DNA from: Eledone cirrhosa
Lineage: Eukaryota
Length of the DNA stretch: 64,000 nucleotides
Direction: 5' to 3'
NCBI GenBank assembly: GCA_964016885.1
Contig: OZ024759.1
Location: 7,192,001-7,256,000, forward strand
Shown: piece by piece, positions 26,501 through 49,925 of the stretch
Numbering within the stretch: position 1 is the first letter of the stretch
Layout of the letters: each line of letters starts with the position of its first letter
The notes under the pieces: generated by a model
Databases searched by the model: none
What the model was told of the DNA's origin: nothing
What the model saw: only the letters and a program-made list of their open reading frames with translations
Program-made: the position numbers and the translations under genes

Positions 26501-27121
26501 TCACCCTACACCCCAATGTCAACTCTATATCTCTCCTCTCTCACCACAGTGTCACCCTACACCCCAATATCAACTCTATATCTCTCCTCTCTCACCACAG
26601 TGTCCCCCTACACCCCAATGCCAACTCTATATCTCTCCTCTCTCACCACAGTGTCACCCTACACCCCAATGTCAACTCTATATCTCCCCCCCTCACCACA
26701 GTGTCACCCTACACCCCAATGTCAACTGTCTCTCTCCCCTCTCTCACCACAGTGTCACCCTACACCCCAATGTCAACTCTATATCTCCCCTCTCTCACCA
26801 CAGTGTCACCCTACACCCCAATGTCAACTCTATATCTCTCCTCTCTCACCACAGTGTCACCCTACACCCCAATGTCAACTCTATATCTCTCCTCTCTCAC
26901 CACAGTGTCACCCTACACCCCAATGTCAACTCTATATCTCTCCCCTCTCACCACAGTGTCACCCTACACCCCAATGTCAACTTTATATCTCTCCTCTCTC
27001 ACCACAGTGTCACCCTACACCCCAATGTCAACTCTATATCTCTCCCCTCTCACCACAGTGTCACCCTACACCCCAATGTCAACTCTATATCTCTCCTCTC
27101 TCACCACAGTGTCACCCTACA
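14570..27121. repeat. 12.5-kb satellite, 49-53-bp units (mode 51): ctctctcaccacAG|tgtcaccctacaccccaatgtcaactctatatctccc
   Basis: Seen directly; about 245-250 units by length/period; last unit supplies the acceptor and first 12 nt of exon C. Confidence 0.98.
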
Positions 27122-27193
27122 GCTACAGTATGCCCAAAGTCAACTGGAAAAACTGACCAAAATAAATGTGTTTAATGCCACCTTCCATATATG
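27110..27193 (+). CDS. BECN1: Beclin-1 exon C (end of coiled coil, start of BARA), 84 nt, phase 2/2
   Basis: ccacAG at 27108-27109 (last unit of the 51-bp array), GTaagt at 27194. (S)[27 protein letters not shown](W) aligns without gaps to human [29 protein letters not shown]. Confidence 0.95.
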
Positions 27194-27349
27194 GTAAGTG
27201 AAGATTTTATTGTTGTTGAGCTTGTTGCTGTTTATCATCATCAGTTTACATCAGTTGGCCCTGTTGGTATGGGTTAGACGGGTCCTTACACTGCCAGCCA
27301 GCTTGTGGACATTCCAACAATGTCAAAAAATAGTACAGCTCCCATTACT

Positions 27350-28350
27350 TTCGAAAACATTTTTTCCTGCTCAGAGTTTCTGAAGCATGGAACAAACTAC
27401 CAGCATCAGTTGTTAGCTGTTGAGACACTGTATCCTTTAAAACCTCCATGGAACAAACTACCAGCATCAGTTGTTAGCTGTTGAGACACTGTATCCTTTA
27501 AAACCTCCATGGAACAAACTACCAGCATCAGTTGTTAGCTGTTGAGACACTGTATCCTTTAAAACCTCCATGGAACAAACTACCAGCATCAGTTGTTAGC
27601 TGTTGAGACACTGTATCCTTTAAAACCTCCATGGAACAAACTACCAGCATCAGTTGTTAGCTGTTGAGACATTGTACCCTTTAAAACCTCCATGGAACAA
27701 ACTACCAGCATCAATTGTTAGCTGTTGAGACACTGTATCCTTTAAAACCTCCATGGAACAAACTACCAGCATCAGTTGTTAGCTGTTGAGACACTGTATC
27801 CTTTAAAACCTCCATGGAACAAACTACCTGCATCAGTTGTTAGCTGTTGAGACATTGCATCCTTTAAAACCTCCATGGAACAAACTACCAGCATCAGTTG
27901 TTAGCTGTTGAGATACTGCATCCTTTAAAACCTCCATGGAACAAACTACCAGCATCAGTTGTTAGCTGTTGAGATACTGCATCCTTTAAAACCTCCATGG
28001 AACAAACTACCAGCATCAGTTGTTAGCTGTTGAGACACTGCACCCTTTAAAACCTCCATGGAACAAACTACCAGCATCAGTTGTTAGCTGTTGAGATACT
28101 GCATCCTTTAAAACCTCCATGGAACAAACTACCAGCATCAGTTGTTAGCTGTTGAGACACTGTATCCTTTAAAACCTCCATGGAACAAACTACCAGCATC
28201 AGTTATTAGCTGTCGAGACATTGCATCCTTTAAAACCTCCATGGAACAAACTACCTGCATCAGTTGTTAGATGTCGAGACACTGCATCCTTTAAAACCTC
28301 CATGCTTCCCAACGCCAACACTACACCTGATATTCTCCCTCCATACATAT
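27350..28350 (+). repeat. 61-bp minisatellite (~15 units, 27387-28303) inside a CR1-like LINE 3' remnant
   Basis: Unit catggaacaaactaccagcatcagttgttagctgttgagacactgtatcctttaaaacctc translates to WNKLPASVV..FK, like the C-terminus of CR1/L2-group ORF2; flanks match 55020-55465. Confidence 0.85.
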
Positions 28351-28388
28351 GTTTTTATATACTCCTGTCTCTCTCTCTCTCTCTAACA

Positions 28389-31020
28389 TTGTGACGGCTA
28401 TGATGGAATCCATGGAGGCTATGGGTTTGGTACTAGAAATGAGGAAGGCTTCAGAATCCTGGAATTCTGTGACGCTAATAACCTAACTATCTGTAATACA
28501 AACTTCAAATAACAAGACCATCCCTTGATCACCTATAGATAGATTATATCCTTACCAGTCAGATAGATTATATCCTTACCAGAAGACGTGACAAAGTGTC
28601 TGTTGTAAACACTAAGTCCCTCCCCAGTGAAGAATGCACCTCCCAACATAGCCTCATAGTTAGTGACCTCATAATCAGGACTAGACGTACTCGACGGCAG
28701 AGGTGGACTACTTTGAGGAGAAGAATATGGAAGTTGAAGGACCCCACAGCCAGTAATAAATTTAAAAGCATATGACTTGATGCTTTTGACAGTAAGGAAA
28801 ACTGTGATATTGTCGGGGAGAAGTGTGCCTGTAATGATGATGGTGTACTTGCTATTACTGATGCTGATAAGAAGGTAGCTTGGAAGTGTCACTACGAGAG
28901 GCTACTAAATGAGGAGAATAAATGGGAAAAAGATAGTCTGCCCCAAATCGATCCAATAGAGGGACGAGCAGTGCAAGTTAAAGGTAGTATAATAAGTAAG
29001 ACAATCAAAGATATGAAGACGGGCAAGGCAGCTGGGCCTTCGAAGATAGTTGCTGAGATGTTGAAAGCATCTGGAATGGTGGGACATACTATGGTCACCT
29101 GGATAGTACAAAAAGTAATACAGAATGGGGTCATACCTGGCGTAGCAGCATCATCATTAACTGCTACAAGGGTAAAGGAGATACTCTAGATAGAGGAAAC
29201 TATGGAGGCATTAAGTTAGTTGACCAGGTCATGAAGGTCACAGAAAGAATTAGAGCACAACTAATCAGAGATCGAATTGATCTAGATGAAATGCAGTTTG
29301 GGTTTGTGTCAGGTAAAATTACCACAGATGCTCTTTTCCTTGTACGACAAAACTACAAGAGAAGTACCTAGCTAAAAGTTAACCCCTCTACTTAGCTTTT
29401 GTTGACTTGGAGAAAGCCTTTGACAGAGTCCCCCGCTCCATTATCTGGTGGGCTCTTAGAAAACTAGGTGTAGATGTATGGCTTGTGAGAGCTATACAAG
29501 CTATGTATAAAGAAACAGTCAGCAAGGTTAGAATTAACAACGAATATAGTGAAGAATTTAGTGTAAAAGCTGGTCTGTCTTTAGCCCCCTCCTATTTATT
29601 ATTTCTTTTCAGGCTATAACAGAGGAGTTCAAGACCGGCTGCCCATAGGAACTTCTATATGCAGATGATCTAACGCTCATAGCTAAATCAATGGCTGTAC
29701 TAGAGAAGAAATTCCAAACATGGAAGCATGGTCTAGAATCAAAAGGCCTTAAAGTTAACTTGTCTAAGACTAAAGTTCTAGTATGTAGAAAGGAAAATAG
29801 GGCACAAGAGTCCTCTGGGAAATGGCCATGCTCAGTGTGTAAGAAAGGAGTAGGTAGAAATTCCATTTTATGTCCCAAGTGCAAACTATGGGTACATAAA
29901 AGATGTAGTGGGATCACAGGTAAGCTATTTAAGAGCATAGATTTTATATGTAGCCGATGCTCAGGTGCAATAAGTAGCAAGTGCCCACAGGATACTAGCT
30001 CCTTCTATTGCCCAGATGGTTCTATAGAAATAGTGGACACTTTCCGTTATCTGGGGGACAAAATCAGCAGTGGTGGAGGATGTTCTGAAAGTACAGTAGC
30101 CAGAGTCAGAACGGGATGGAAAAAGTTCAGAGAGCTTATACCGCTGTTGGCCACAAAAGGTTTCTCTCTAAAAATGAAAGGCAGATTGTATGATCCCTGT
30201 ATACGAACAGCAATGCTATATGGCAGTGAGACATGGGCATTGTGTGCAGAGGACCTGCACAGACTGGAAAGGAACGAAGCTTGCATGCTCCGCTGGATGT
30301 GTAATAGTAATATACATGAACGGCAAAGCATAAATGAACTAAGTGAGAAATTAGGAATAAGATGGATCAGCTGCTGTTTACTTGAGAGAAGACTACGTTG
30401 GTATGGCCACATGATGCGGATGAAGGACGACAGCTGTATAAAAAAGTGCAGGGCGATCAAAATTGATGGAAGCTACGGAGTAGGTAGACCCAGAAAAACC
30501 TGGGATGATCTGATAAATTCCGACCTTACACACTTACACCTCTCTAAGACAATGTCACTGGACCGAGATCTTTGGTGTTACGCAGTAATACAGAAGACCT
30601 GCCTTGTCTATGTACAAAGTGAAACCTACAGTCAGTAGGCACCTCTTAACCAAATATACACCCCAATCCCACTACCCCTACCCTATCCTCCCACTCCCAC
30701 AAACACCACCCTCTCTCTGTAAAGTTGGTACCACAACATCCAGTCCAAATAAATGAGATAATGAGATCGAGATCGTGTAGGTGAAACGACAAACAAACAC
30801 AGTCCACGCTGTAATGTGGCCGTCTAGGTAACACGGTAAAAACCTCCCAGTTCACACTGTAAATGTGGTTGGTGTTAGGAAGGGCATCCAGCCGTAGAAA
30901 ACCTGCCAGACAGTCCTATATGAGCGAGACACGGTCACCCGACCAACCTTACCTCAAGTGGGACAACTCCCGTCTAACCCATGCTAGCGTGGGAGATAGA
31001 CGTTAAACGATGATGATGAT
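28389..31020 (+). mobile_element. RTE-clade LINE, 5'-truncated and internally deleted, with RT, Cys/His finger, 3' UTR and (GAT)n
   Basis: MKTGKAAGPS, QFGF, AFVDLEKAFDRVPR, LLYADDL, FRYLG, RRLRWYGH, GRPRKTW; several frameshifts and stops. Confidence 0.95.
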
Positions 31021-31315
31021 ATATGTATGGTGGTTTGGTTCCACTACTCCTGATAAAGTTGTTGGGGCGTAGTATTGACATGTGGCATTTCTTAGGCATT
31101 TAAAGCCTGGCAGAGCCTATCTCTCTCCAGGCCGGAGTACAGCAGATTTCTTCCAGAGAGAGGAAGAATCAACCCAGTACTTGACTGGTACTTTTTTTTA
31201 TCAACCTCAAAAGGATGAAACGCAGATTTGACCTCGGCAAGATTTGAACTCAGAGAGCTGCAATGAATATTATAAAGCATTCTATCCAATGTTCTAACGA
31301 CTCTGTCAATGAAAA

Positions 31316-31535
31316 TTGTGTACAGTGCTCAGGTGCATTACAACTCATCAAAGGTGCATGTATAGTACATAGAATAATGTACAAATGTCAGGAAAGTGAA
31401 TAGTGTATGAGTCATGATATACACACAGACACATGTGTATGGAGGGGGAATATCTGGTGTAGTGTTGACGAATTTCGGGAAGCATAGAAGTTTTAAAGGA
31501 TGCAGTGTCCCAATAGTTAACAACTGATGCTGGTA
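31316..31535 (-). mobile_element. CR1-like LINE 3' end, unamplified copy
   Basis: Reverse complement of 55370-55590. Confidence 0.75.
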
Positions 31536-31624
31536 TGTACTTATAGAAGAGGTCCTTTAGTCATCTCTTACAACAGTCATACAGAAATATATGAACTAAA
31601 CTCTCTCTCCTCTTTCTTCCACAG

Positions 31625-31685
31625 GCACAACGGACAGTTTGTTACAATAAACAACTTCAGATTAGGCCGGCTTCCAAGTGCCCAG
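31625..31685 (+). CDS. BECN1: Beclin-1 exon D, 61 nt, phase 2/0
   Basis: Long pyrimidine tract then acAG at 31623-31624, GTaagt at 31686. (W)HNGQFVTINNFRLGRLPSAQ. Confidence 0.96.
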
Positions 31686-31899
31686 GTAAGTACAAAATAT
31701 ATTTATATATCATCATCATCATCATTTAATATCCATTTTTCCACACTGGCATGGGTTAGACGAGTTGTCCTGTTGTGGGCAATGCTAGGTCAGGTGACCA
31801 TGTCTTCCTCATACATAACTATTTGGGGTTAGGTTTCTATAGCTGGATGCCCTTCCTAGCACCAACCTCATTTACAATATTGGGTGCTTTTTACCGTGG

Positions 31900-34800
31900 C
31901 GCCACTTTGCAGTGTGGACTGGGTGCTTTTTGTTGTGACACCTACATGACCACTTTACAGTGTGGACTGGGTGCCTTTTGTTGTGACACCTACATGACCA
32001 CTTTACAGTGTGGACTGGGTGCCTTTTGTTGTGACACCTACATGACCACTTTACAGTGGGGACTGGGGACTTTTGTTGTGACTCCTACATGACCACTTTA
32101 CAGTGTGGACTGGGTGCCTTTTGTTGTGACACCTACATGACCACTTTACAGTGTGGACTGGGTACTTTTTGTTGTGACACCTACATGACCACTTTACAGT
32201 GTGGACTGGGTGGTTTTTGTTGTGACACCTACATGACCACTTTACAGTGTGGACTGGGTGCTTTTTGTTGTGACACCTACATGACCACTTTACAGTGTGG
32301 ACTGGGTGCTTTTTGTTGTGACACCTACATGACCACTTTACAGTGTGGACTGGGTGCTTTTTGTTGTGACACCTACATGACCACTTTACAGTGTGGACTG
32401 GGTGCTTTTTGTTGTGACACCTACATGACCACTTTACAGTGTGGACTGGGTGCTTTTTGTTGACACCTACATGACCACTTTACAGTGTGGACTGTGTACT
32501 TTTTGTTGTGACTCCTACATGACCACTTTACAGTGTGGACTGGGTACTTTTTGTTGTGTGACCTACATGACCACTTTACAGTGTGGACTGGGTGCCTTTT
32601 GTTGTGACTCCTACATAACCACTTTACAGTGTGGACTGGGTGCTTTTAGTTGTGACACCTACATGACCACTTTACAGTGTGTACTGGGTACTTTTTGTCA
32701 TGAGACCTACACGACCCCTTTACAGTGAGGACTGGGTACTTTTTGACGTGAAACCTACATGACCACTTTACAGTGTGGACTGGGTGCTTTTTGTTGTGAC
32801 ACCTACATGACCACTTTACAGTGTGGACTGGGTGCCTTTTGTTGTGACTCCTACATGACCACTTTACAGTGTGGACTGGGTACTTTTTGTTGTGACACCT
32901 ACATGACCACTTTACAGTGTGTACTGGGTACTTTTTGTTGTGACACCTACATGACCACGTTACAGTGTGGACTGGGTACTTTTTGTTGTGACACCTACAT
33001 GACCACTTTACAGTGTGGACTGGGTACTTTTTGTTGTGACACCTACATGACCACTTTACAGTGTGGACTGGGTGCCTTTTGTTGTGACACCTACATGACC
33101 ACTTTACAGTGTGGACTGGGTACTTTTTGTTGTGACACCTACATGACCACTTTACAGTGTGGACTGGGTGCTTTTTGTTGTGACACCTACATGACCACTT
33201 TACAGTGTGGACTAGCTGCTTTTTGTTGACACCTACATGACCACCTTACAGTGTGGACTGGGTACTTTTTGTTGTGACACCTACATGACCACTTTACAGT
33301 GTGGACTGGGTGCTTTTTGTTGTGACACCTACATGAACACTTTACAGTGTGGACTGGGTGGTTTTTCTTGTGACACCTACATGACCACTTTACAGTGGGT
33401 ACTGGGTGCTTTTTGTTGTGACACCTACATGAACACTTTACAGTGTGGACTGGGTGCTTTTTGTTGTGACACCTACATGACCACCTTACAGTGTGGACTG
33501 GGTACTTTTTGTTGTGACACCTACATGACCACTTTACAATGTGGACTGGGTGCTTTTTGTTGTGACACCTACATGAACACTTTACAGTGTGGACTGGGTG
33601 CTTTTTGTTGTGACACCTACATGACCACTTTACAGTGTGGACTGTACTTTTTGTTGTGACACCTACATGACCACTTTACAGTGTGGACTGGGTACTTTTT
33701 GTTGTGACTCCTACATGACCACTTTACAGTGTGGACTGGGTACTTTTTGTTGTGACACCTACATGACCACTTTACAGTGTGGACTGGGTGCCTTTTGTTG
33801 TGACTCCTACATAACCACTTTACAGTGTGTACTGGGTACTTTTTGTTGTGATTCCTACATGACCACTTTACAGTGGGGACTGGGTACTTTTTGTTGTGAC
33901 TCCTACATGACCACTTTACAGTGTGGACTGGGGACTTTTTGTTGTGATTCCTACATGACCACTTTACAGTGGAGACTGGGAACTTTTTGTTGTGACTCCT
34001 ACATGACCACTTTACAGTGTGGACTTTGTACTTTTTGTTGTGACACCTACATGACCACTTTACAGTGTGGACTGGGTACTTTTTGTTGTGACACCTACAT
34101 GACCACTTTACAGTGTGGACTGGGCGATTTTTGTCATGACACCTACATGACCACTTTACAGTGTGGACTGGGTGCCTTTTGTTGTGACTCCTACATGACC
34201 ACTTAACAGTGTGGACTGGGTACTTTTTGTTGTGACACCTACATGACCACTTTACAGTGTGTACTGGGTACTTTTTGTTGTGACACCTACATGACCACTT
34301 TACAGTGTGGACTGGGTACTTTTTGTTGTGACACCTACACAACCACTTTACAGTGTGGACTGGGTACTTTTTGTTGTTACACATACATGACCACTTTACA
34401 GTGTGGACTGGGTACTTTTTGTTGACACCTACATGACCACTTTACAGTGTGGACTGTGTGCCTTTTGTTGTGACACCTACATGACCACTTTACAGTGTGG
34501 ACTGGGTGCCTTTTGTTGTGACTCCGACATGACCACTTTACAGTGTGGACTGGGTGCTTTTTGTTGTGAGACCTACATGACCACATTACAGTGTGGATTG
34601 GGTGCCTTTTGTTGTGACACCTACTAGACCACTTTACAGTGTGGACTGGGTGCTTTTTGTCGTGACACCTACATGACCACTTTACAATAAGTACTGGGTG
34701 GTTTTTGTTGTGACACCTACATGATCACTTTACAGTGTGGACTGGGTACTTTTTGTTGTGACACCTACATGACCACTTTACAGTGTGGACTGGGTGCTTC

Positions 34801-35727
34801 TTATTGTGACACCTACATGACCACTTTACGGTGTGTACTGGGTACTTTTTGTTGTGACACCTACATGACCACTTTACAGTGTGGACTGGGTACTTTTTGT
34901 TGTGTGACCTACATGACCACTTTACAGTGTGGACTGGGTGCTTCTTATTGTGACACCTACATGACCACTTTACGGTGTGTACTGGGTGCTTTTTGTTGTG
35001 TCACCTACATGACCACTTGACAGTGTGGACTGGGTACTTTTTGTTGTGTGACCTACATGACCACTTTACATTGTGGACTGGGTACTTTTTGTTGTGACAC
35101 CTACATGACCACTTTACAGTGTAGACTGGGTACTTTTTGTTGTGACACCTACATGACCACTTTACAGTGTGGACTGGGTGCTTTTTGTTGTGAGACCTAC
35201 ATGACCACTTTACAGTGTGGACTGGGTGCTTTTTGTTGTGAGACCTACATGACCACTCTACAGTGTGGACTGGGTGCCTTTTGTCATGACACCTACATGA
35301 CCACTTTACAGTGTGGACTGGGTGCTTTTTGTCGTGACACCTACATGACCACTTTACAATAAGTACTGGGTGGTTTTTGTTGTGACACCTACATGATCAC
35401 TTTACAGTGTGGACTGGGTACTTTTTGTTGTGATTGCTACATGACCACTTTACAGTGTGGACTGGGTACTTTTTATTGTGTCACCTACATGACCACTTTA
35501 CAGTGTGGACTGGGTACTTTAGGTTGTGACACCTACATGACCACTTTACAGTGTGGACTGGGTACTTTTTGTTGTGACTCCTACATGACCACTTTACAGT
35601 GTGGGCTGGGTACTTTTTGTTGTGACTCCTACATGACCACTTTACAGTGTGGACTGTGTGCCTTTTGTTGTGACACCTACATGACCACTTTACAGTGTGG
35701 ACTGGGTACTTTTTGTTGTGTGACCTA
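31900..35727. repeat. 48-bp satellite (ccactttacagtgtggactgggtgctttttgttgtgacacctacatga), about 80 units
   Basis: Seen directly; continues from a minus-strand SINE/RTE tail at 31710-31910. Confidence 0.97.
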
Positions 35728-35942
35728 CCATTATATAACTATCTTATCTTCCACTTACTATATATATATCAATGTATGCTCTCCCCCCCAACTCCCTCTC
35801 TCTCACCCCATCATCATCATTTCCGTTTAGCGTCAATTCTTCCATGCTAGCATGGGTTAGATGGGTCGTCCATGCTGGGAGCCAAATCTAGCTATTGCAT
35901 ACTTTGCTCTGGCAAGGACTGTTTGGCCAGGTATTTTACAGC

Positions 35943-38900
35943 TGGATGCCCCCTAAAACCAACTACACTCTGCTACTTTACCAATGTCTCTGCCCAACTC
36001 TCTCTAGGATGCCCCCCTAACACCAACTACACTCTGCTACTTTACCAATGTCTCTGCCCAACTCTCTAGGATGCCCCCTAATACCAACTACACTCTGCTA
36101 CTTTACCAATGTCTCTGCCCAACTCTCTAGGATGCCCCCCTAATACCAACTACACTCTGATACTTTACCAATGTCTCTACCCAACTCTCTAAGGTGCCCC
36201 CCTAACACCAACTACACTCTGCTACTTTACCAATGTCTCTGCCCAACTCTCTCTAGGGTGCCCCACTCTCTCTAGGATGCCCCCCTAATACCAACTACAC
36301 TCTGATACTTTACCAATGTCTCTACCCAACTCTCTAGGGTGTCCCCCTAATACCAACTACACTCTGAGACTTTACCAATGTCTCTACCCAACTCTCTAGG
36401 ATGCCCCCCTAACACCAACTACACTCTGCTACTTTACCAATGTCTCTACCCAACTCTCTCTAGGAAGCCCCCCTAACACCAACTACACTCTGCTACTTTA
36501 CCAATGTCTCTACCCAACTCTCTCTAGGATGCCCCCCCCCCCTAACACCAACTACACTCTGATACTTTACCAATGTCTCTACCCAACTCTCTAGGGTGCC
36601 CCCCTAACACCAACTACACTCTGCTACTTTACCAATGTCTCTACCCAACTCTCTAAGGTGCCCCCCTAACACCAACTACACTCTGCTACTTTACCAATGT
36701 CTCTGCCCAACTCTCTAGGATGCCCCCCCCCCCCCCTAACACCAACTACACTCTGCTACTTTACCAATGTCTCTACCCAACTCTCTAGGGTGCCCCCCTA
36801 ACACCAACTACACTCTGCTACTTTACCAATGTCTCTACCCAACTCTCTAGGATGCCCCCCTAACACCAACTACACTCTGCTACTTTACCAATGTCTCTGC
36901 CCAACTCTCTAGGATGCCCCCCTAAAACCAACTACACTGTGCTATTTTACCAATGTCTCTACCCAACTCTCTAGGATGCCCCCCTAACACCAACTACACT
37001 GTGCTACTTTACCAATGTCTCTACCCAACTCTCTAGGATGCCCCCCTAACACCAACTACACTCTGCTACTTTACCAATGTCTCCACCCAACTCTCTCTAG
37101 GATGCCCCCCTAACACCAACTACACTCTGCTACTTTACCCATGTCTCTACCCAACTCTCTAGGATGCCCCCCTAACACCAACTACACTCTGCTACTTTAC
37201 CAATGTCTCTACCCAACTCTCTAGGATGCCCCCCCTAACACCAACTACACTGCTACTTTACCAATGTCTCCACCCAACTCTCTCTAGGATGCCCCCCCTA
37301 ACACCAACTACACTGCTACTTTACCAATGTCTCCACCCAACTCTCTCTAGGGTGCCCCCCTAACACCAACTACACTGTGCTACTTTACCAATGTCTCTGC
37401 CCAACTCTCTAGGGTGTCCCCCTAACACCAACTACACTGTGCTACTTTACCAATGTCTCTGCCCAACTCTCTAGGGTGCCCCCCTAACACCAACTACACT
37501 GCTACTTTACCAATGTCTCTACCCAACTCTCTAGGGTGCCCCCCTAACACCAACTACACTGTGCTACTTTACCAATGTCTCTACCCAACTCTCTAGGATG
37601 CCCCCCCCCTAACACCAACTACACTGTGACACTTTACCAATGTCTCTACCCAACTCTCTCTAGGATGCCCCCCCTAACACCAACTACACTGTGCTACTTT
37701 ACCAATGTCTCTACCCAACTCTCTAGGAAGCCCCCCTAACACCAACTACACTGCTACTTTACCAATGTCTCTACCCAACTCTCTCTAGGATGCCCCCCCT
37801 AACACCAACTACACTCCTACTTTACCAATGTCTCTACCCAACTCTCTAGGGTGCCCCCCTAACACCAACTACACTCCTACTTTACCAATGTCTCTACCCA
37901 ACTCTCTAGGGTGCCCCCCTAACACCAACTACACTGCTACTTTACCAATGTCTCTACCCAACTCTCTAGGATGCCCCCCCTAACACCAACTACACTGCTA
38001 CTTTACCAATGTCTCTACCCAACTCTCTAGGGTGCCCCCCTAACACCAACTACACTCTGCTACTTTACCAATGTCTCTACCCAACTCTCTAGGGTGCCCC
38101 CCTAACACCAACTACACTCTGCTACTTTACCAATGTCTCTACCCAACTCTCTAGGGTGCCCCCCTAACACCAACTACACTCTGCTACTTTACCAATGTCT
38201 CTACCCAACTCTCTAGGGTGCCCCCCTAACACCAACTACACTCTGCTACTTTACCAATGTCTCTACCCAACTCTCTAGGGTGCCCCCCTAACACCAACTA
38301 CACTCTGCTACTTTACCCATGTCTCTACCCAACTCTCTAGGGTGCCCCCCTAACACCAACTACACTGTGCTACTTTACCCATGTCTCTACCCAACTCTCT
38401 AGGGTGCCCCCCTAACACCAACTACACTCTGCTACTTTACCCATGTCTCTACCCAACTCTCTAGGGTGCCCCCCTAACACCAACTACACTGTGCTACTTT
38501 ACCCATGTCTCTACCCAACTCTCTAGGGTGCCCCCCTAACACCAACTACACTCTGCTACTTTACCAATGTCTCTACCCAACTCTCTAGGGTGCCCCCCTA
38601 ACACCAACTACACTCTGCTACTTTACCAATGTCTCTACCCAACTCTCTAGGGTGCCCCCCTAACACCAACTACACTCTGCTACTTTACCAATGTCTCTAC
38701 CCAACTCTCTAGGATGCCCCCCTAACACCAACTACACTCTGCTACTTTACCAATGTCTCTACCCAACTCTCTAGGGTGCCCCCCTAACACCAACTACACT
38801 CTGCTACTTTACCAATGTCTCTACCCAACTCTCTAGGGTGCCCCCCTAACACCAACTACACTCTGCTACTTTACCAATGTCTCTACCCAACTCTCTAGGG

Positions 38901-39268
38901 TGCCCCCCTAACACCAACTACACTCTGCTACTTTACCAATGTCTCTACCCAACTCTCTAGGGTGCCCCCCTAACACCAACTACACTCTGCTACTTTACCA
39001 ATGTCTCTACCCAACTCTCTAGGGTGCCCCCCTAACACCAACTACACTCTGCTACTTTACCCATGTCTCTACCCAACTCTCTAGGGTGCCCCCCTAACAC
39101 CAACTACACTCTGCTACTTTACCCATGTCTCTACCCAACTCTCTAGGGTGCCCCCCTAACACCAACTACACTCTGCTACTTTACCAATGTCTCTACCCAA
39201 CTCTCTAGGGTGCCCCCCTAACACCAACTACACTCTGCTACTTTACCCATGTCTCTACCCAACTCTAG
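35943..39268. repeat. ~62-bp satellite (ggtgccccccCTAACaccaactacactctgctactttaccaatgtctctacccaactctctAG), about 54 units, ending at the exon E acceptor
   Basis: Seen directly; begins inside a minus-strand SINE/RTE tail (tacagctggatgccc) at 35812-35960. Confidence 0.97.
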
Positions 39269-39357
39269 GTTGACTGGAATGAAATCAATGCAGCCTGGGG
39301 CCAGACAGTTCTCCTACTTCATGCTTTGGCTAAAAAAATGAATCTTAAATTTACGAA
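39269..39357 (+). CDS. BECN1: Beclin-1 exon E, 89 nt, phase 0/2
   Basis: ctctAG at 39267-39268 (last unit of the 62-bp array), GTaagt at 39358. [29 protein letters not shown](K), containing the [10 protein letters not shown] signature. Not in the ORF track. Confidence 0.97.
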
Positions 39358-39412
39358 GTAAGTCAAACTTTATATTTCATACATTTTGGGGGGTTTTGTT
39401 TTATTGTTTCTA

Positions 39413-40197
39413 ATCTGGTCCAGTCCGGTGCGATCTGGTCTGGTCCGGTGCGATCTGGTCATGTCTGGTGCGATCTGGTCCAGTCCAGTGCGATCTGGTC
39501 TAGTCTGGTGCGATCTGGTCCAGTCCGCTCCAATGCGATCTGGTCATGTCTGGTGCGATCTGGTCCAGTCCAGTGCGATCTGGTCTAGTCTGGTGCGATC
39601 TGGTCCAGTCCGCTCCAATGCGATCTGGTCATGTCTGGTGCGATCTGGTCCAGTCCGGTGCGATCTGGTCCAGTCCGGTGCGATCTGGTCTGGTCCAATG
39701 CGATCTGGTCCTGTCTGCTGCGATCTGGTCCAGTCCAGTGCGATCTGGTCCAGTCCGATGCGAACTGGTCCAGTCTGGTGCTCTCTGGTCCGGTCCAATT
39801 CGATCTGGTCCTGTCTGGTGTGATCTGATCCAGTCCGGTGCGATCTGGTCCAGTCCGATGCGAACTGGTCCGGTCTGGTGCGTTCTGGTCCAATCCAGTG
39901 CAATCTGGTCCAGTCCGGTGCAATCTGGTCCAGTCCGGTGCAATCTGGTCCAGTCCGGTGCAATCTGGTCCAGTCCGGTACAATCTGGTCCAGTCCGGTA
40001 CAATCTGGTCCAGTCCGGTGCAATCTGGTCCAGTCCGGTACAATCTGGTCCAGTCCGGTGCAATCTGGTCCAGTCCGGTACAATCTGGTCCAGTCCGGTG
40101 CAATCTGGTCCAGTCCGGTGCAATCTGGTCCAGTCCGGTGCAATCTGGTCCAGTCCGGTGCAATCTGGTCCAGTCCTGTGCAATCTGGTCCAGTCTG
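39413..40197. repeat. 20-bp minisatellite (gtgcaatctggtccagtccg), about 39 units
   Basis: Seen directly; degenerate 5' half, homogeneous 3' half; fills most of intron E-F. Confidence 0.95.
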
Positions 40198-40329
40198 AAG
40201 CAAACTGACCGTTCGACCCAAGACTTCCTCCTGAACAAGACACCAGTCCATAGCAGGGTAAAAGAGCTTATCCCAGTGTAAATGGTGTCAACCATTCAAC
40301 CATACGCTGTACATATACACCCTCTGTAA

Positions 40330-40473
<144 letters not shown>

Positions 40474-40506
40474 TAAGTTAGTTTGGAGTGTGGTGTGTAT
40501 AGTGTT

Positions 40507-40547
<41 letters not shown>

Positions 40548-40584
40548 TCATCGTCGTCGTTTCCTGTCCACATTTCCCTGCTTG

Positions 40585-40676
<92 letters not shown>

Positions 40677-40678
<2 letters not shown>

Positions 40679-41016
40679 CCACTTGGCTTAGTGGTTAGAG
40701 CATTGGCCTTGCAATCGAAAGGTTGTGAGTTCAATTCTCAGACCAGGTGATGTGTTGTTTCCTTGAGCAAGACACTTTATTTCACATTGCTCCAGTTTAC
40801 TCAGCTGTAGAAATGAGATAGGACTGGGGTCCCTATCATTCCACTGCAAAGTGGTCGTGGAGGTGCCACGGCAAAAAAGCACCCAGCACTCACTGTAAAT
40901 GAGGTTGGTGTTAGGGAGGGCATCCAGCTGTAGAAATCAAGCCAGAATCAGTTCCCGTCCCACCCTTGCAAGCAGGGAAAAGTGGACGTAAAATGAAATG
41001 ATGATGATGATGATGA
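40677..41016 (+). mobile_element. Full-length CORE-type SINE
   Basis: Near identical to 4591-4930; preceded by (TA)n(GA)n, ends in (GAT)n. Confidence 0.85.
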
Positions 41017-41080
41017 TATATATATATGTGTGTGTATGATGTTTGTGTATTAATATATATATGTACGTAGTGTTTGTATA

Positions 41081-41129
<49 letters not shown>

Positions 41130-41394
41130 ATGTAGTGTTTGTGTATTAATATATATATATATATGTGTATGTGTATGTAGTGTTTGTGTATTAATATATA
41201 TATGTGTGTGTGTGTGTGTAGTGTAGTGTTTGTGTATTTATATATATATATATGTGTGTGTGTAGTGTTTCGATACATATATGTGTGTGTATTAATACAT
41301 ATATGTGTGTGTGTGTGTGTGTATTAATACATACATATATGTGTGTGTGTGTATTAATACATACATATATGTGTGTATGTCTTTTTGAACTTTA

Positions 41395-43260
41395 TTAACC
41401 TCATTGTCAAGCTTGACGTGAGGAATGCCGTCAAATACCTATGCTGGAACCATCTGCCCGAGGCCTTCCTCAGCCGAGCCCTCTCTGCCTACCTGCTGGC
41501 TTACCTGTCATATGGGGCCCTCAGCATGCTCCTTGTTACTGACACGGCAGTCATAGTTTCAGTCACTGAGGTCCAACAGGGTGACCCTTTGGGCCCCCCT
41601 CCTCTTTGCTCTTGGTATAGACCACATTGCTCAAAATATCACGGTCCCTCTAATGTTTGGTACGTGGATGATGCCGGGCGGGCCCATGGTGACTGTCTGC
41701 CATGAACTGCAACTGGTGGTTCCTGCTCTGACGAGAGTCGGCCTCCAGATCAACTCGTCCAAGTCGGAGGTGGTGACTGTCAACCATAATGCTGGGAGCT
41801 TTGCAGCCTCCATCTTGTACGTGCAATCCTTTCTCCCCCAGGTACAGGTGACAACTAAAGAGGATTTCCTCATCCTCTGGTCAGTGATCCACCCGCTGGC
41901 CATCCACTCCACCATTATGTCCAGGCTTCAGCAGCTCAAGACCCTCACGAGTAGACTGTGCATGATTGACACCCACCCAGCCCTCTTCCTGTTAAGGAAC
42001 TGCTTTGCCATGCCGAAGCTCCTCTATACACTACATAATGCTCCTTGCTACAGCCACGCGTCTCTCCTCGCTGACCTCGACATTTGTATCCAAGCGGCAG
42101 ATGAGGAGATATGCAATGTCTGGTTTGATGACTTTGGATGGCAACAGGTCCCCTTATCTGTTAGCAATGGTGGCCTTGGCCTCCGGTCCCTGGTCTCGCC
42201 AGCTTTGCTGGCATTTCTTTTGTTGGTAACCTCTTGCCACATCCTCATTAACAAGGTTCTTCAAAACAATGGAACCCACTGTGATCAAGGAATGTGAGGC
42301 CGCCTGCGAGACTTGGAACTGGCTCAGACTCAGCCCAGTAGACGTCCCTCCTCCTTTTTCCCCTGTTGACGTCAAATCTCCCCCAGAGCACTTGGGATGC
42401 CATCTAGTGCAACAATGCCTCGAACAGACTAGCGCACCAGCTCAACCTCTCACATCCCCACAATGGTGCCTGGCTCAATGCCTTACCCTCTTTTTCAACT
42501 GGAACACAGCTGGATAATGATAGCCTGCGCATTGGGGTTTCCCTGAGACTCGGCCTCCAGATCTGCAAGCCACAGAAATTTAACTGCAGATCAACCATTG
42601 ACTCTTTCGGCCACCACTCGCTGTCATGTCGCTACAGTGCCGGCCACCTTCCATGCCGCGCCACCCTCAACGAGGTCATAAAGCATGGCTTGGATGCTGC
42701 AGGCTTCTCCTCACAGTTCGAGCCAATGGGGCTGGAGTGAGGGGATAGCATGAATATCTTCCTGTTCCGCGGTAGTAAACCCCTCGTCTGGGATGCCGCA
42801 TGCAGCGACACATTCTCCAGTGGCAACCTGGTGCAGTCTGAAAGTAACCCAGGCTCTGCTGCACTTTGGGCTGAGGAGGGAAAACTCTCCAAGTACTGGT
42901 TGCTCTCTGACAGGTTTGCTGTAGAGCCCCTAGCAGTGGAGACTTCTGGTGTCCTTGGCCCTAGGGTCACCTCCCTACTTACCACCATCGGCGCTGAGCT
43001 GGCTACCCCTAGCAGTGGAGACTTCTGGTGTCCTTAGCCCTAGGGTCACCTCCCTACTTACCACCATCAGCACTGAGTTGGCTACCCCTAGCAGTGGAGA
43101 CTTCTGGTGTCCTTAGCCCTAGGGTCACCTCCCTACTTACCACCATCAGCACTGAGTTGGCCACAGGTGTGAGCCTCATGACCTGGAATGGCTCTTCCAA
43201 CACATCTCCCTCACCATCCTCCAGGGAAACGCTTTCTCTATTCTGTCCACCAGCGCCATG
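41395..43260 (+). mobile_element. Decayed CRE-clade (restriction-like endonuclease) non-LTR retrotransposon, 5'-truncated
   Basis: KLDVRNA, VQQGDPLGP, WYVDD, GLQINSSKSE, GGLGLRS, GAWLNALP, SLRLG, HSLSC, LVWD, EEGKLSKY, PLAVETSG, QGNA in shifting frames; 79-bp segment triplicated at 42927-43163. Confidence 0.8.
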
Positions 43261-43298
43261 GAGCGGCCAACACATGGGACCCCATTTGCTGATAATAG

Positions 43299-46200
43299 TG
43301 AGAGATTGGGAGAGGGGGAGAGATGGAGGTGATGACAGTGGGAGTTTGGTTCCTCTGTGTTCAGACCTGGTGTACATGAGAGATGGGGAGGGCAGGAGAG
43401 ATGGAGGTGATGACAGTGGGAGTTTGGTTCCTCTGTGTTCAGACCTGGTGTACATGAGAGATGGGGAGGGCAGGAGAGATGGAGGTGATGACAGTGGGAG
43501 TTTGGTTCCTCTGTGTTCGGACCTGGTGTACATGAGAGATGGGGAGGGCAGGAGAGATGGAGGTGATGACAGTGGGAGTTTGGTTCCTCTGTGTTCGGAC
43601 CTGGTGTACATGAGAGATGGGGAGGGCAGGAGAGATGGAGGTGATGACAGTGGGAGTTTGGTTCCTCTGTGTTCAGACCTGGTGTACATGAGAGATGGGG
43701 AGGGCAGGAGAGATGGAGGTGATGACAGTGGGAGTTTGGTTCCTCTGTGTTCGGACCTGGTGTACATGAGAGATGGGGAGGGCAGGAGAGATGGAGGTGA
43801 TGACAGTGGGAGTTTGGTTCCTCTGTGTTCAGACCTGGTGTACATGAGAGATGGGGAGGGCAGGAGAGATGGAGGTGATGACAGTGGGAGTTTGGTTCCT
43901 CTGTGTTCAGACCTGGTGTACATGAGAGATGGGGAGGGCAGGAGAGATGGAGGTGATGACAGTGGGAGTTTGGTTCCTCTGTGTTCAGACCTGGTGTACA
44001 TGAGAGATGGGGAGGGCAGGAGAGATGGAGGTGATGACAGTGGGAGTTTGGTTCCTCTGTGTTCGGACCTGGTGTACATGAGAGATGGGGAGGGCAGGAG
44101 AGATGGAGGTGATGACAGTGGGAGTTTGGTTCCTCTGTGTTCAGACCTGGTGTACATGAGAGATGGGGAGGGCAGGAGAGATGGAGGTGATGACAGTGGG
44201 AGTTTGGTTCCTCTGTGTTCGGACCTGGTGTACATGAGAGATGGGGAGGGCAGGAGAGATGGAGGTGATGACAGTGGGAGTTTGGTTCCTCTGTGTTCAG
44301 ACCTGGTGTACATGAGAGATGGGGAGGGCAGGAGAGATGGAGGTGATGACAGTGGGAGTTTGGTTCCTCTGTGTTCGGACCTGGTGTACATGAGAGATGG
44401 GGAGGGCAGGAGAGATGGAGGTGATGACAGTGGGAGTTTGGTTCCTCTGTGTTCAGACCTGGTGTACATGAGAGATGGGGAGGGCAGGAGAGATGGAGGT
44501 GATGACAGTGGGAGTTTGGTTCCTCTGTGTTCGGACCTGGTGTACATGAGAGATGGGGAGGGCAGGAGAGATGGAGGTGATGACAGTGGGAGTTTGGTTC
44601 CTCTGTGTTCGGACCTGGTGTACATGAGAGATGGGGAGGGCAGGAGAGATGGAGGTGATGACAGTGGGAGTTTGGTTCCTCTGTGTTCAGACCTGGTGTA
44701 CATGAGAGATGGGGAGGGCAGGAGAGATGGAGGTGATGACAGTGGGAGTTTGGTTCCTCTGTGTTCAGACCTGGTGTACATGAGAGATGGGGAGGGCAGG
44801 AGAGATGGAGGTGATGACAGTGGGAGTTTGGTTCCTCTGTGTTCAGACCTGGTGTACATGAGAGATGGGGAGGGCAGGAGAGATGGAGGTGATGACAGTG
44901 GGAGTTTGGTTCCTCTGTGTTCGGACCTGGTGTACATGAGAGATGGGGAGGGCAGGAGAGATGGAGGTGATGACAGTGGGAGTTTGGTTCCTCTGTGTTC
45001 AGACCTGGTGTACATGAGAGATGGGGAGGGCAGGAGAGATGGAGGTGATGACAGTGGGAGTTTGGTTCCTCTGTGTTCGGACCTGGTGTACATGAGAGAT
45101 GGGGAGGGCAGGAGAGATGGAGGTGATGACAGTGGGAGTTTGGTTCCTCTGTGTTCAGACCTGGTGTACATGAGAGATGGGGAGGGCAGGAGAGATGGAG
45201 GTGATGACAGTGGGAGTTTGGTTCCTCTGTGTTCGGACCTGGTGTACATGAGAGATGGGGAGGGCAGGAGAGATGGAGGTGATGACAGTGGGAGTTTGGT
45301 TCCTCTGTGTTCAGACCTGGTGTACATGAGAGATGGGGAGGGCAGGAGAGATGGAGGTGATGACAGTGGGAGTTTGGTTCCTCTGTGTTCGGACCTGGTG
45401 TACATGAGAGATGGGGAGGGCAGGAGAGATGGAGGTGATGACAGTGGGAGTTTGGTTCCTCTGTGTTCGGACCTGGTGTACATGAGAGATGGGGAGGGCA
45501 GGAGAGATGGAGGTGATGACAGTGGGAGTTTGGTTCCTCTGTGTTCAGACCTGGTGTACATGAGAGATGGGGAGGGCAGGAGAGATGGAGGTGATGACAG
45601 TGGGAGTTTGGTTCCTCTGTGTTCAGACCTGGTGTACATGAGAGATGGGGAGGGCAGGAGAGATGGAGGTGATGACAGTGGGAGTTTGGTTCCTCTGTGT
45701 TCAGACCTGGTGTACATGAGAGATGGGGAGGGCAGGAGAGATGGAGGTGATGACAGTGGGAGTTTGGTTCCTCTGTGTTCGGACCTGGTGTACATGAGAG
45801 ATGGGGAGGGCAGGAGAGATGGAGGTGATGACAGTGGGAGTTTGGTTCCTCTGTGTTCAGACCTGGTGTACATGAGAGATGGGGAGGGCAGGAGAGATGG
45901 AGGTGATGACAGTGGGAGTTTGGTTCCTCTGTGTTCGGACCTGGTGTACATGAGAGATGGGGAGGGCAGGAGAGATGGAGGTGATGACAGTGGGAGTTTG
46001 GTTCCTCTGTGTTCAGACCTGGTGTACATGAGAGATGGGGAGGGCAGGAGAGATGGAGGTGATGACAGTGGGAGTTTGGTTCCTCTGTGTTCAGACCTGG
46101 TGTACATGAGAGATGGGGAGGGCAGGAGAGATGGAGGTGATGACAGTGGGAGTTTGGTTCCTCTGTGTTCAGACCTGGTGTACATGAGAGATGGGGAGGG

Positions 46201-47806
46201 CAGGAGAGATGGAGGTGATGACAGTGGGAGTTTGGTTCCTCTGTGTTCGGACCTGGTGTACATGAGAGATGGGGAGGGCAGGAGAGATGGAGGTGATGAC
46301 AGTGGGAGTTTGGTTCCTCTGTGTTCAGACCTGGTGTACATGAGAGATGGGGAGGGCAGGAGAGATGGAGGTGATGACAGTGGGAGTTTGGTTCCTCTGT
46401 GTTCGGACCTGGTGTACATGAGAGATGGGGAGGGCAGGAGAGATGGAGGTGATGACAGTGGGAGTTTGGTTCCTCTGTGTTCAGACCTGGTGTACATGAG
46501 AGATGGGGAGGGCAGGAGAGATGGAGGTGATGACAGTGGGAGTTTGGTTCCTCTGTGTTCGGACCTGGTGTACATGAGAGATGGGGAGGGCAGGAGAGAT
46601 GGAGGTGATGACAGTGGGAGTTTGGTTCCTCTGTGTTCAGACCTGGTGTACATGAGAGATGGGGAGGGCAGGAGAGATGGAGGTGATGACAGTGGGAGTT
46701 TGGTTCCTCTGTGTTCGGACCTGGTGTACATGAGAGATGGGGAGGGCAGGAGAGATGGAGGTGATGACAGTGGGAGTTTGGTTCCTCTGTGTTCGGACCT
46801 GGTGTACATGAGAGATGGGGAGGGCAGGAGAGATGGAGGTGATGACAGTGGGAGTTTGGTTCCTCTGTGTTCAGACCTGGTGTACATGAGAGATGGGGAG
46901 GGCAGGAGAGATGGAGGTGATGACAGTGGGAGTTTGGTTCCTCTGTGTTCAGACCTGGTGTACATGAGAGATGGGGAGGGCAGGAGAGATGGAGGTGATG
47001 ACAGTGGGAGTTTGGTTCCTCTGTGTTCAGACCTGGTGTACATGAGAGATGGGGAGGGCAGGAGAGATGGAGGTGATGACAGTGGGAGTTTGGTTCCTCT
47101 GTGTTCGGACCTGGTGTACATGAGAGATGGGGAGGGCAGGAGAGATGGAGGTGATGACAGTGGGAGTTTGGTTCCTCTGTGTTCAGACCTGGTGTACATG
47201 AGAGATGGGGAGGGCAGGAGAGATGGAGGTGATGACAGTGGGAGTTTGGTTCCTCTGTGTTCGGACCTGGTGTACATGAGAGATGGGGAGGGCAGGAGAG
47301 ATGGAGGTGATGACAGTGGGAGTTTGGTTCCTCTGTGTTCAGACCTGGTGTACATGAGAGATGGGGAGGGCAGGAGAGATGGAGGTGATGACAGTGGGAG
47401 TTTGGTTCCTCTGTGTTCAGACCTGGTGTACATGAGAGATGGGGAGGGCAGGAGAGATGGAGGTGATGACAGTGGGAGTTTGGTTCCTCTGTGTTCAGAC
47501 CTGGTGTACATGAGAGATGGGGAGGGCAGGAGAGATGGAGGTGATGACAGTGGGAGTTTGGTTCCTCTGTGTTCGGACCTGGTGTACATGAGAGATGGGG
47601 AGGGCAGGAGAGATGGAGGTGATGACAGTGGGAGTTTGGTTCCTCTGTGTTCAGACCTGGTGTACATGAGAGATGGGGAGGGCAGGAGAGATGGAGGTGA
47701 TGACAGTGGGAGTTTGGTTCCTCTGTGTTCGGACCTGGTGTACATGAGAGATGGGGAGGGCAGGAGAGATGGAGGTGATGACAGTGGGAGTTTGGTTCCT
47801 CTGTGT
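43299..47806. repeat. 78-bp satellite, 57 full units plus partial, one polymorphic site
   Basis: Unit agagatggaggtgatgacagtgggagtttggttcctctgtgttc[a/g]gacctggtgtacatgagagatggggagggcagg; no other variation seen by eye. Confidence 0.98.
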
Positions 47807-48010
47807 CAGTTTACACTATTGACCCTTTGATTGCTGGACATAATACTTTAGTCATGCATCAAGTTAAAAAGTTAGAATCGCAGTATCTGACTAAAATGTA
47901 CGTAGTTGCTTCCCTTCGACCATAAAGTTTATAAGAAAAACAAGTTGACTTTACATTTAATTTCTATTTTAGAAGTTTCCTGTCTAAACGAAATTGTTGT
48001 TGTCTTACAG

Positions 48011-48053
48011 GTTTGATCATGCAATGGTAGCATTTCTGGACTGTTTACAAGAG
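48011..48053 (+). CDS. BECN1: Beclin-1 exon G, 43 nt, phase 2/0
   Basis: ttacAG at 48009-48010, GTgagt at 48054. (K)FDHAMVAFLDCLQE. Confidence 0.96.
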
Positions 48054-48132
48054 GTGAGTGTGTCTTAACGGGTCTTCTGTATAGTTTCTGTCTACCAAAT
48101 TCACCAACAAAGCATTATATATATGTGTGTGT

Positions 48133-48159
<27 letters not shown>

Positions 48160-48167
<8 letters not shown>

Positions 48168-48465
48168 ATATTAACAAATGGAAACTATATTTATAAAACC
48201 ATATTTATTTCATTATACATATTTCAAGGACCACCAGAGCAAACTATGGTGCGCTTTCATCAGATAAAATAGAATATAGGTTAGTTTTATAAATAAATAT
48301 TGACATACCCTTAAAAAATGCAACCATTCTGGTTGGAATCTCCTGGATAGGGGAGTTATTAAATTTATTGTTGGTTTATTATGCAAATTAGTGGCCCTTG
48401 AAATATGTATAATGAAATAAATATGGTTTTATAAATATAGTTTCCATTTGTTAATATATTGTATA
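48160..48465. repeat. Inverted repeat (about 70-bp arms), Penelope-like remnant
   Basis: 48160-48228 is the reverse complement of 48397-48465; follows (TA)n; followed by gttgagtgct as at about 674. Confidence 0.75.
48206..48271 (-). ncRNA. Minimal type-I hammerhead ribozyme motif
   Basis: Minus strand: tattttat-CTGATGA-aagcgcacca..tggtggtcctt-GAAA-tatgta-TA^-atgaaata. Confidence 0.65.
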
Positions 48466-48552
48466 TTTACTCCAATAATTTGTTGAGTGCTTTATATCAG
48501 TTATAAAAATATTTTGCTTGTTGTATCCCAACAAATTAAATATAACCTCTAC

Positions 48553-48828
48553 ATATATATATGTGTATGTGTGTGTGTGGATATATATATATATGTGTGT
48601 GTGTGTGTGGATATATATATATGCAAATGTGTGTGTGTGGATATATATATATATATGTAAATGTATGTGTGTGTGGATATATGTATATATATGTGTGTGT
48701 GGATATATATATATGTAAATGTGTGTGGATATATATATATGTAAATGTATATGTGTGTGTGTGAGGATATATATGTATGTAAATGTATGTGTGTGTGTGG
48801 CTATATATATGTATATATGTGTGTGTGG

Positions 48829-48863
<35 letters not shown>

Positions 48864-49014
48864 AATGTATGTATGTGTGTGTGTGTGGATATATATATAT
48901 GTAAATGTATGTGTGTGTGTGGATATATATATATGTGTGTGTGTGTGTATATATATGTGTGTGTGTGTGTCGATATATATATATGTAAATATATGTGTGT
49001 ATGTGTGTGTGTAG

Positions 49015-49047
<33 letters not shown>

Positions 49048-49925
49048 GATATATATATATGCAAATGTGTATGTGTGGATATATATATATATATATGTAA
49101 ATGTATGTGTGTGTGGATATATGTATATATATGTGTGTGTGTGTGGATATATATATATGTAAATGTATGTGTGTGTGTGTGTGCGTGTGGATATATATAT
49201 ATGTAAATGTATGTGTGTGTGGATATATATATGTGTGTGTGTATATATGTGTGTGTGTGTGTGTATATATATGTGGTGTGTGTGTGTATATATATATGTG
49301 TGTGTGTGTGTATATATATATACGTGTGTGTGTGGATATATATATGTAAATGTATGTGTGTGTGTGTCTGTGGATATATATATGTGTGTGTGTGTGGATA
49401 TATATATATATAAATGTATGTGTGTGTGTGTGTGGATATATATATGTATATATGTGTGTGTGTGTGTGGATATGTAAATGTATGTGTGCGTGTGTGGATA
49501 TATATATGTGTGTGTGTGGATATATATATATGTGTGTGTGTGGATATATGTATATGTATGTGTGTGTGTGTGTAGATATATATATATGTAAATGTGTGTG
49601 TGTGTGTTGATATATATATATATGTGTGTGTGTGGATATATATATATATGTAAATGTATGTGTGTGTGTGTGGATATATATATATATATGTGTGTGTGTG
49701 TGGATATATGTATATGTAAATGTATGTGTGTGTGTGTGTGTGGATATATGTATATGTGTGTGTGTGTGGATATATATATGTGTGTGTGTATGTGTGGATA
49801 TATATATATGTAAATGTATGTGTGTGTGTGTGGATATATATGTATGTAAATGTATGTGTGCGTGTGTGTGTGGATATATATATATGTGTGTGTGTATATA
49901 TATATATGTAAATGTATGTGTGTAT
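48553..49925. repeat. Compound (TA)n/(TG)n microsatellite punctuated by gga and gtaaatgta
   Basis: Seen directly; ends about 15 nt before exon H. Confidence 0.95.

Follow-up and report, generated by a model that had tools for sequence, protein, structure and literature searches.

In a 64,000-nucleotide (nt) stretch of the genome of Eledone cirrhosa (contig OZ024759.1, positions 7,192,001 to 7,256,000 of the forward strand; hereafter the window), the 3' end of one intron of the autophagy gene Beclin-1/Atg6 is reiterated in a 62-bp minisatellite of 54 units (35945..39268, forward strand). In the full units, the intron D/E end is copied as far as AG|G, and the last AG of the array is, judged from alignment, the conserved acceptor of exon E. 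We consider it probable that the array is a neutral acceptor expansion akin to the "mirage" minisatellites of lancelets, which exon definition allows the gene to tolerate, albeit with a degree of leak to the closest decoys. A preliminary description, made from the letters alone, had reported about 54 acceptor copies before exon E and suggested that array length could set the share of transcripts bound for nonsense-mediated decay (NMD). While its observation is confirmed by our analysis, its interpretation is only partly supported.

Of the gene, the 3' two thirds lie in the window (12480..63796, forward strand) as nine exons, here lettered B, B2 and C to I (12480-12677, 14449-14511, 27110-27193, 31625-31685, 39269-39357, 40362-40472, 48011-48053, 49941-50044 and 63691-63796). 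Joined, the exons give 285 open codons and a stop with a clean translation, and all eight introns are bounded by GT and AG. Six of the eight exon translations submitted matched the Pfam families APG6_N or APG6, which places the gene in the Beclin-1/Atg6 family. A homolog search with exon H returned Octopus sinensis beclin-1 as the top protein match; with exon B as query, 0 of 230 candidates matched. The O. sinensis protein is near-identical to the translations of exons C to I (76-78% for exons B and B2), and its residues 1-164 have no match within the window.

Exon E (39269..39357, 89 nt, forward strand) belongs to the BARA domain and corresponds to residues 301-330 of the O. sinensis protein with 100% identity. 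Its authentic acceptor AG (39267..39268, forward strand) is located by the APG6 profile and by protein alignment. Profile positions run contiguously from exon D (15-33) into exon E (35-62), and the junction of the two exons is gap-free against all 12 of the named Beclin-1 proteins aligned. Exon D (31625..31685, forward strand) has its donor at 31686, in phase 0, and is the splicing partner of the array acceptors. When O. sinensis residues 160-340 were used as query, one other close relative was found among the best 120 of 627 matches; this protein carries 21 extra N-terminal residues, and its D/E junction is gap-free as well.

The array itself was delimited with Tandem Repeats Finder (TRF), which called 35949-39266 with a period of 62, 52.9 copies, 92% matches and a score of 5393, and by a manual split into 53 full units of 60-70 nt and one of 19 nt, with a modal length of 62 nt. 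This bears out the copy number first reported, and the acceptor is indeed repeated at the unit ends, described earlier as ctctAG|G: 52 units, the one with the real acceptor counted, end in TAG|G and two in AAG|G. The 57 AG dinucleotides in 35943-39268 comprise the 54 unit ends and three point variants. The last unit (39209..39268, forward strand) is, as described, the one with the real acceptor and 2 nt below the mode (60 nt). The description was slightly overstated for CTAAC. Said to occur in each unit, this motif is found in 47 of the 54 (the others have CTAAT in four cases, CTAAA in two and neither in one), and TTTAC is present in 53. A pyrimidine-rich stretch is also present, but it is mediocre, with 72% pyrimidine over -20..-3 and a longest run of 5-6 nt. 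The first and last units are both unique variants, and the distance between neighbouring units falls toward the exon from 6.81 in the first quarter to 4.15, 2.65 and finally 0.58. Neither Rfam nor ARAGORN found a match to a structured RNA gene in the array.

Locally, the real acceptor is not superior to its copies. On a crude acceptor score, trained on the gene's eight other acceptors, it reached 0.9 compared to 1.7 for a typical decoy, and 52 of the 56 decoys scored equal or higher. Hiding of the decoys in local structure was rejected, as the unpaired probability was 0.56 at the real site and 0.58-0.61 at the decoys, and the fold gave z=+1.07 against shuffles. Since the real AG scores no better and is no more accessible than the decoys, context must decide. 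Exon E has 53% purines and four GAA, compared to 33-34% and no GAA in the units, and its donor (39358..39363, forward strand) is the sole GTRAG within 35700-39420. The flanking introns are long (7583 nt upstream and 1004 nt downstream), so that exon E would be recognised across the exon, and only four of the 57 AGs, the real one included, define an exon of at most 300 nt. The last AG alone adjoins the purine-rich exon, 89 nt from the single good donor, and would win for this reason. In human data, sites closest across the exon are favoured when the introns on both sides are long (PMC9225289).

Several points weigh against this explanation. The preference for upstream 3' sites is described in the same human study as only "significantly reduced" under exon definition, without a statement that it is reversed (PMC9225289). 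The nearest decoy AG (39207..39208, forward strand) gives a normal-sized exon of 149 nt and has a tract that is equal to or better than that of the real site. In addition, the decoys are transcribed from 4.3 kb past the donor, which is 3.3 kb ahead of the real site and gives them a kinetic window. Two pseudo-sites are reported to be used in CBS and 6-16 (cited in PMC1557585). Furthermore, that the last AG is used faithfully is deduced from how the protein is conserved in other species, and the splicing rules, exon definition and junction-dependent NMD invoked are mammalian, borrowed here for a cephalopod. As the upstream preference is only reduced and the exon made with the nearest decoy is of ordinary size (149 nt), a certain leak to this decoy is likely.

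The products of such leak can be predicted by translation. All 56 upstream AGs lead to a premature stop, each upstream of the E/F junction by over 55 nt. The penultimate AG, at the nearest decoy, adds 60 nt (39209-39268) closing with an in-frame TAG at 39266-39268, as previously claimed, and this stop lies 89 nt before the junction. The contrast drawn with the array before exon C also holds, as one extra unit there adds 51 nt in frame and free of stops. However, the in-frame TAG, to which the premature stop had been ascribed, is incidental, since a hypothetical last unit of 62 nt would yield a premature stop too. A product escaping decay would stop about 19 residues past position 300 and would lack most of the BARA domain. 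Skipping of exon E (89 nt) results in a frameshift.

Such leak, likely at the one to three decoys closest to the exon, would give stop-containing RNA that is probably removed by NMD, and it should not rise with further units. Only three of the 56 decoys would make an exon that stays within 300 nt (six within 500 nt), and a GTRAG donor was not found inside the array; the leak should therefore saturate rather than scale with array length. Two units, 5 and 13, end in AAG|GT (36192-36199 and 36656-36663) and resemble ratchet sites with a weak donor. Recursive splicing was rejected as the main mechanism because AG|GT occurs in only 2 of 54 units, the best donor match is 6 of 9 positions and the array lacks GTRAG.

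Selection on the array was also considered through its position. Tandem arrays make up about 60% of the gene span. Once they are collapsed, five introns shrink to about 67 nt (12678-14448), 47 nt (14512-27109), 548 nt (31686-39268), 241 nt (39358-40361) and 544 nt (48054-49940). Intron growth in this gene owes as much to tandem expansion as to insertion. Five of the 11 minisatellites lie in these introns, although they account for only 7% of the length after collapsing (binomial p=7e-4, a post hoc value from one gene). Under uniform placement in the collapsed window, four of 11 arrays lie 60 nt or less from a splice site compared to 0.41 expected (p=0.0008), with the 62-bp array placed 2 nt from its site by the TRF end at 39266. 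When each array is instead placed within its own collapsed intron, with the 62-bp array at 0 nt by the unit split, two arrays cover an acceptor compared to 1.7 of 11 expected (combined p=0.59), and the 62-bp array alone gives p of about 0.11. Selection placing arrays at splice sites was therefore rejected, as the enrichment is gone under this null.

A second candidate signature lies within the units. A GGT start after TAG decoys is found in 21 of the last 26, exon-near units, compared to 8 of the first 25. Selection for this start was rejected because it is indistinguishable from polar turnover, which is seen both ways in other arrays; array polarity runs in either direction among nine arrays. 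Since both position and polarity agree with chance expectation, selection on the 62-bp array is not needed.

A function of the array can nevertheless be framed in several ways. The broadest is a working, length-variable rheostat combined with a wider octopod habit of minisatellite-inflated introns, which we hold to be unlikely. If true, the 53 full-strength decoys, whose transcription precedes that of a weak real site by up to 3.3 kb, would draw off or hold up Beclin-1 pre-mRNA in a proportion that increases with copy number. Introns that were once compact (about 50-550 nt collapsed) would have been inflated by exon-adjacent minisatellites. Acceptors are reiterated at two of the gene's eight introns, by 54 and about 247 copies. 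Tuning of Beclin-1 by copy number would, if true, amount to a fast-mutating dose control on autophagy, and human ABCA7 argues against NMD as its route (PMC5954066).

Of the specific functional readings, length-dependent skipping or stalling is better precedented than a rheostat from decoys to NMD, and still distinctly unlikely in our judgement. The C/A-rich array would bind splicing factors or repressors according to its length and lower the recognition of exon E, and the output would be exon skipping or slow removal of intron D/E and not decoy use. This is in line with the weakness of the real acceptor, with the frameshift that loss of the 89-nt exon causes, and with ABCA7, where skipping of the exon that follows, and lower expression, went with the length of the variable number tandem repeat (VNTR) (PMC5954066). 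A review also states that exon inclusion changes with the length of thousands of human repeats close to splice sites (PMC13196383). However, the ABCA7 repeat is donor-side and GC-rich (PMC5954066), and splicing at lancelet acceptor mirages is reported to be regular (PMC3087553).

The rheostat proper, in which decoys capture the exon D donor co-transcriptionally and the NMD-bound share rises with array length to tune the Beclin-1 dose, extends the suggestion of the preliminary description, and we regard it as quite improbable. In its favour are a stop over 55 nt ahead of the following junction for all 56 upstream AGs, 52 of 56 decoys that score like the real site or higher, and a 3.3 kb head start. 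Inserted CAG repeats can make a working intronic acceptor (bioRxiv 10.1101/2023.10.16.562581), and human BECN1 is described as dose-sensitive (PMC9405542). Nevertheless, the effect should saturate with three decoys giving exons of 300 nt or less and no internal GTRAG, VNTR length was reported to have no effect on NMD in ABCA7 (PMC5954066), and position and polarity of the array show no sign of selection.

The origin of the unit bears on a further alternative. The 3' tail of a truncated retroposon lies in antisense orientation at 35809..35967 (reverse strand) and runs into unit 1. By blastn, this stretch is 71.5% identical to dispersed copies in the window over 165 columns, and its core reaches 82-84% over 54-55 nt. 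The 5' 20 nt of the unit match all 13 dispersed copies tested (shuffle p<=0.002). In contrast, the 3' 42 nt match none of the 13 (p 0.17-0.99), and a retroposon source for this part is unsupported. Judging from these matches, the unit is a chimera of about 23 nt of retroposon and about 40 nt of native intron end, and the first 23 nt or so of every unit, CTAAC included, come from the antisense tail. The retroposon origin first proposed for the 5' part is thus well founded.

The antisense tail sits some 40 nt ahead of the acceptor of exon E, and the 62-nt stretch from within the tail to the AG is what is repeated 54 times. The array may have started from a single tandem duplication between short look-alike ends (tail G|GATG, acceptor AG|GTTG) and may then have expanded through ordinary turnover of minisatellites, which would be most recent next to the exon. 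The turnover is polar, with the neighbour distance dropping from 6.81 to 0.58 toward the exon. The same intron holds a second antisense tail (31704..31950, reverse strand), which runs into a 48-bp minisatellite of about 80 copies (31902..35728, forward strand) from the same retroposon family. Without arrays and tails, intron D/E would be roughly 130 nt long.

The last unit contains two YTNAY sites, and neither is followed by another AG before the acceptor. These are CTAAC (39216..39222, forward strand; A39221 at -48, retroposon-derived) and TTTAC (39240..39246, forward strand; A39245 at -24, in the native part). While CTAAC is the better match to the consensus heptamer (5/7 compared to 3/7) and to U2 (4/6 compared to 3/6 paired), the 20 nt following it are only 65% pyrimidine. 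In each of the gene's seven other complete introns, a TNA candidate lies at -22 to -33 and the stretch from it to the acceptor is free of AG, and mammalian branch points mostly lie 18-37 nt upstream (PMC8531310). Because of these distances, and as the -24 site is native, we favour A39245 over A39221 as the working branch point, though not strongly. The preliminary description had predicted a retroposon-derived branch point at A39221; CTAAC does lie in the retroposon part, but its use is doubtful, and a branch point of retroposon origin is the less probable of the two.

A history in which the incoming retroposon displaced the former branch site or outcompeted it, A39221 works and the array copies an exapted element is very improbable when taken as the main story; apart from the branch point, it is compatible with neutral expansion under exon definition. 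The stronger consensus and U2 matches of CTAAC, the AG-free stretch between it and the acceptor, and a branch point described at -47 in bovine IRF7 (PMC8531310) are in its favour. However, -48 lies outside both the usual mammalian range and that of the seven other introns, the following tract is poor in pyrimidine, and the native candidate persists at -24.

That the array is an assembly artefact or grossly over-expanded is barely credible: the last 18 units are near-identical (mean 1.05 substitutions) and C runs of 9, 11 and 14 could reflect sequencing slips, but 34 of the 54 units are distinct, divergence grows with separation from 1.92 substitutions at lag 1 to 3.43 at lag 40, no exact unit-aligned repeat exceeds 336 nt, the window has no N bases, and a neighbouring array with only 3 variants among its 57 units, together with the clean translation of the exons, shows that base accuracy is high. 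From its sequence, the 62-bp array looks real.

Several other arrays accompany the gene. The 51-bp acceptor array before exon C (14575..27121, forward strand, about 247 copies) extends over 12 nt of exon C and thus qualifies as a full mirage, with a unit that spans the boundary. A common origin of the 62-bp and exon C units was rejected (alignment score 36 compared to a shuffle mean of 33.8, p=0.36), in agreement with the earlier statement that they are unrelated, as was a common origin with a 22-bp unit (p=0.32). The 22-bp unit is pyrimidine-rich and AG-free, is repeated in 27 copies at 13834-14430, and its array ends 18 nt before the exon B2 acceptor. Two separate arrays at 27386-28304 and 55049-55418 share one 61-bp unit family, of which an inverted single copy lies at 31483-31535, just before exon D. 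Low-complexity arrays at 12685-13822, 14514-14571, 39413-40195 and 48553-49925 lie 2-55 nt past donors or 15 nt before an acceptor.

The retroposon family is found elsewhere in the window. One tail copy (30773-31027) follows an open reading frame with an RVT_1 match (E 6.9e-6, below the curated cut-off), and another (40842-41024) follows a marginal Rfam tRNA match at 40683-40742 (29.6 bits, cut-off 29), where ARAGORN found no tRNA. The latter match is probably the head of a tRNA-derived short interspersed nuclear element (SINE), and the tail after it ends in GAT repeats. As one copy ends a reverse-transcriptase-like frame and the other follows a tRNA-like match, the sequences fit a tail common to a long interspersed nuclear element (LINE) and a SINE. 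The label RTE for this tail stems from the preliminary description; RTE LINEs and SINEs are reported in Octopus vulgaris (PMC13282606). In a decayed LINE at 28400-31020, a PHD-like zinc finger comes after a reverse-transcriptase remnant, and other LINE fragments are scattered in the window.

Some retroposon copies are placed such that they might act on the RNA. The copies at 30773-31027 and 31704-31950 are inverted, 73% identical over 262 columns, and flank exon D; they might form double-stranded RNA for editing, exon loop-out or back-splicing. Short antisense tails starting with CAT repeats at 31704, 35809, 50068 and 12157, in several introns, lie about 20-320 nt from exons or arrays. In the sense copy after exon F, 40904-40916 is a perfect 13-nt complement of 39216-39228, the CTAAC region of each unit. 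The duplex has -51.6 kcal/mol compared to -35.0 for shuffles, with 0 of 200 as low. The copy could pair across exons E and F, although there is one copy to 54 units.

The array is of interest as a natural experiment, since it pits a first-come or intron-proximal choice of acceptor against exon definition within one sequence. It provides an acceptor-side test case with unusually many equal competitors in a conserved autophagy gene, and it extends minisatellites that reiterate splice sites to cephalopods. In the literature searched, with subscription papers outside its scope, there was no report of such minisatellites in this group. In a 2026 repeat annotation of O. vulgaris, term counts over the part available showed no mention of introns or of words starting with "satellite" (PMC13282606). 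Such arrays matter for the annotation of octopod genomes and for read mapping.

The closest relatives are the mirage minisatellites of amphioxus, reported in Adh3, the globins BflGb6 and BflGb9, troponin C and PGBD5 (PMC3087553, PMC3902484). These are tandem copies of exon-intron boundaries, some of them acceptor-side, at which splicing is reported to be regular. Haplotypes differ in mirage length, and the boundary units stay outside homogenisation (PMC3087553). The 62-bp array resembles them in being a tandem, minisatellite-like duplication inside a gene (54 units of modal length 62 nt in intron D/E, within the reported 10-160 bp), and in its reiterated splice signals (52 TAG and two AAG, CTAAC in 47 and TTTAC in 53 units). 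It also resembles them in concerted evolution within the cluster from which the boundary units are excluded, as the neighbour distance falls from 6.81 to 0.58 and the end units are unique. BflGb6 likewise has an acceptor-side mirage. However, the BflGb6 unit holds the start of exon 2, whereas the 62-bp unit carries the whole acceptor to AG|G and at most 1 nt of exon. Because the array includes only the first G of exon E, its membership among strict mirages appears borderline. It further differs in having 54 units compared to 3-6 in BflGb6, in the 23 nt or so of retroposon in its unit, and in its host, a mollusc and not a cephalochordate.

In human genes, a 37-bp VNTR in F7 intron 7 also repeats identical splice sites into the intron, and only the exon-adjacent of its 5-9 identical donors is used; CBS, 6-16, lamin B2 and PDGF are cited as related cases (PMC1557585). 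The 62-bp array is its acceptor-side mirror image, with 53 near-identical 3' sites preceding the one that is needed. Unlike in F7, the upstream decoys are transcribed first here, each with branch candidates and a tract. The 25-bp VNTR in ABCA7 intron 18 is similar in that its unit repeats a splice site and retention of one unit leads to a premature stop and an NMD-sensitive RNA, with the leak going to the neighbouring unit (PMC5954066). It differs in being donor-side and in its measured length polymorphism, while the present array is known from one haplotype. ABCA7 VNTR length tracked expression and exon 19 skipping, and not NMD (PMC5954066).

CAG tracts can also act as acceptors, the first CAG being preferred, and they too supply many AGs that can be spliced from a nearby donor (bioRxiv 10.1101/2023.10.16.562581). 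However, the trinucleotides share one upstream tract, whereas here every 62-nt unit amounts to a full acceptor, of which the last is conserved. Recursive (ratchet) sites, as partly described in PMC13196383, are resembled by units 5 and 13 with AAG|GT, but these are only 2 of 54, their donors match 6 of 9 consensus positions, and the other units lack GT at +1. Collectively, since lancelet and human repeats of this kind mostly leave splicing intact, the reiterated acceptors before exon E of Beclin-1 are probably tolerated clutter.

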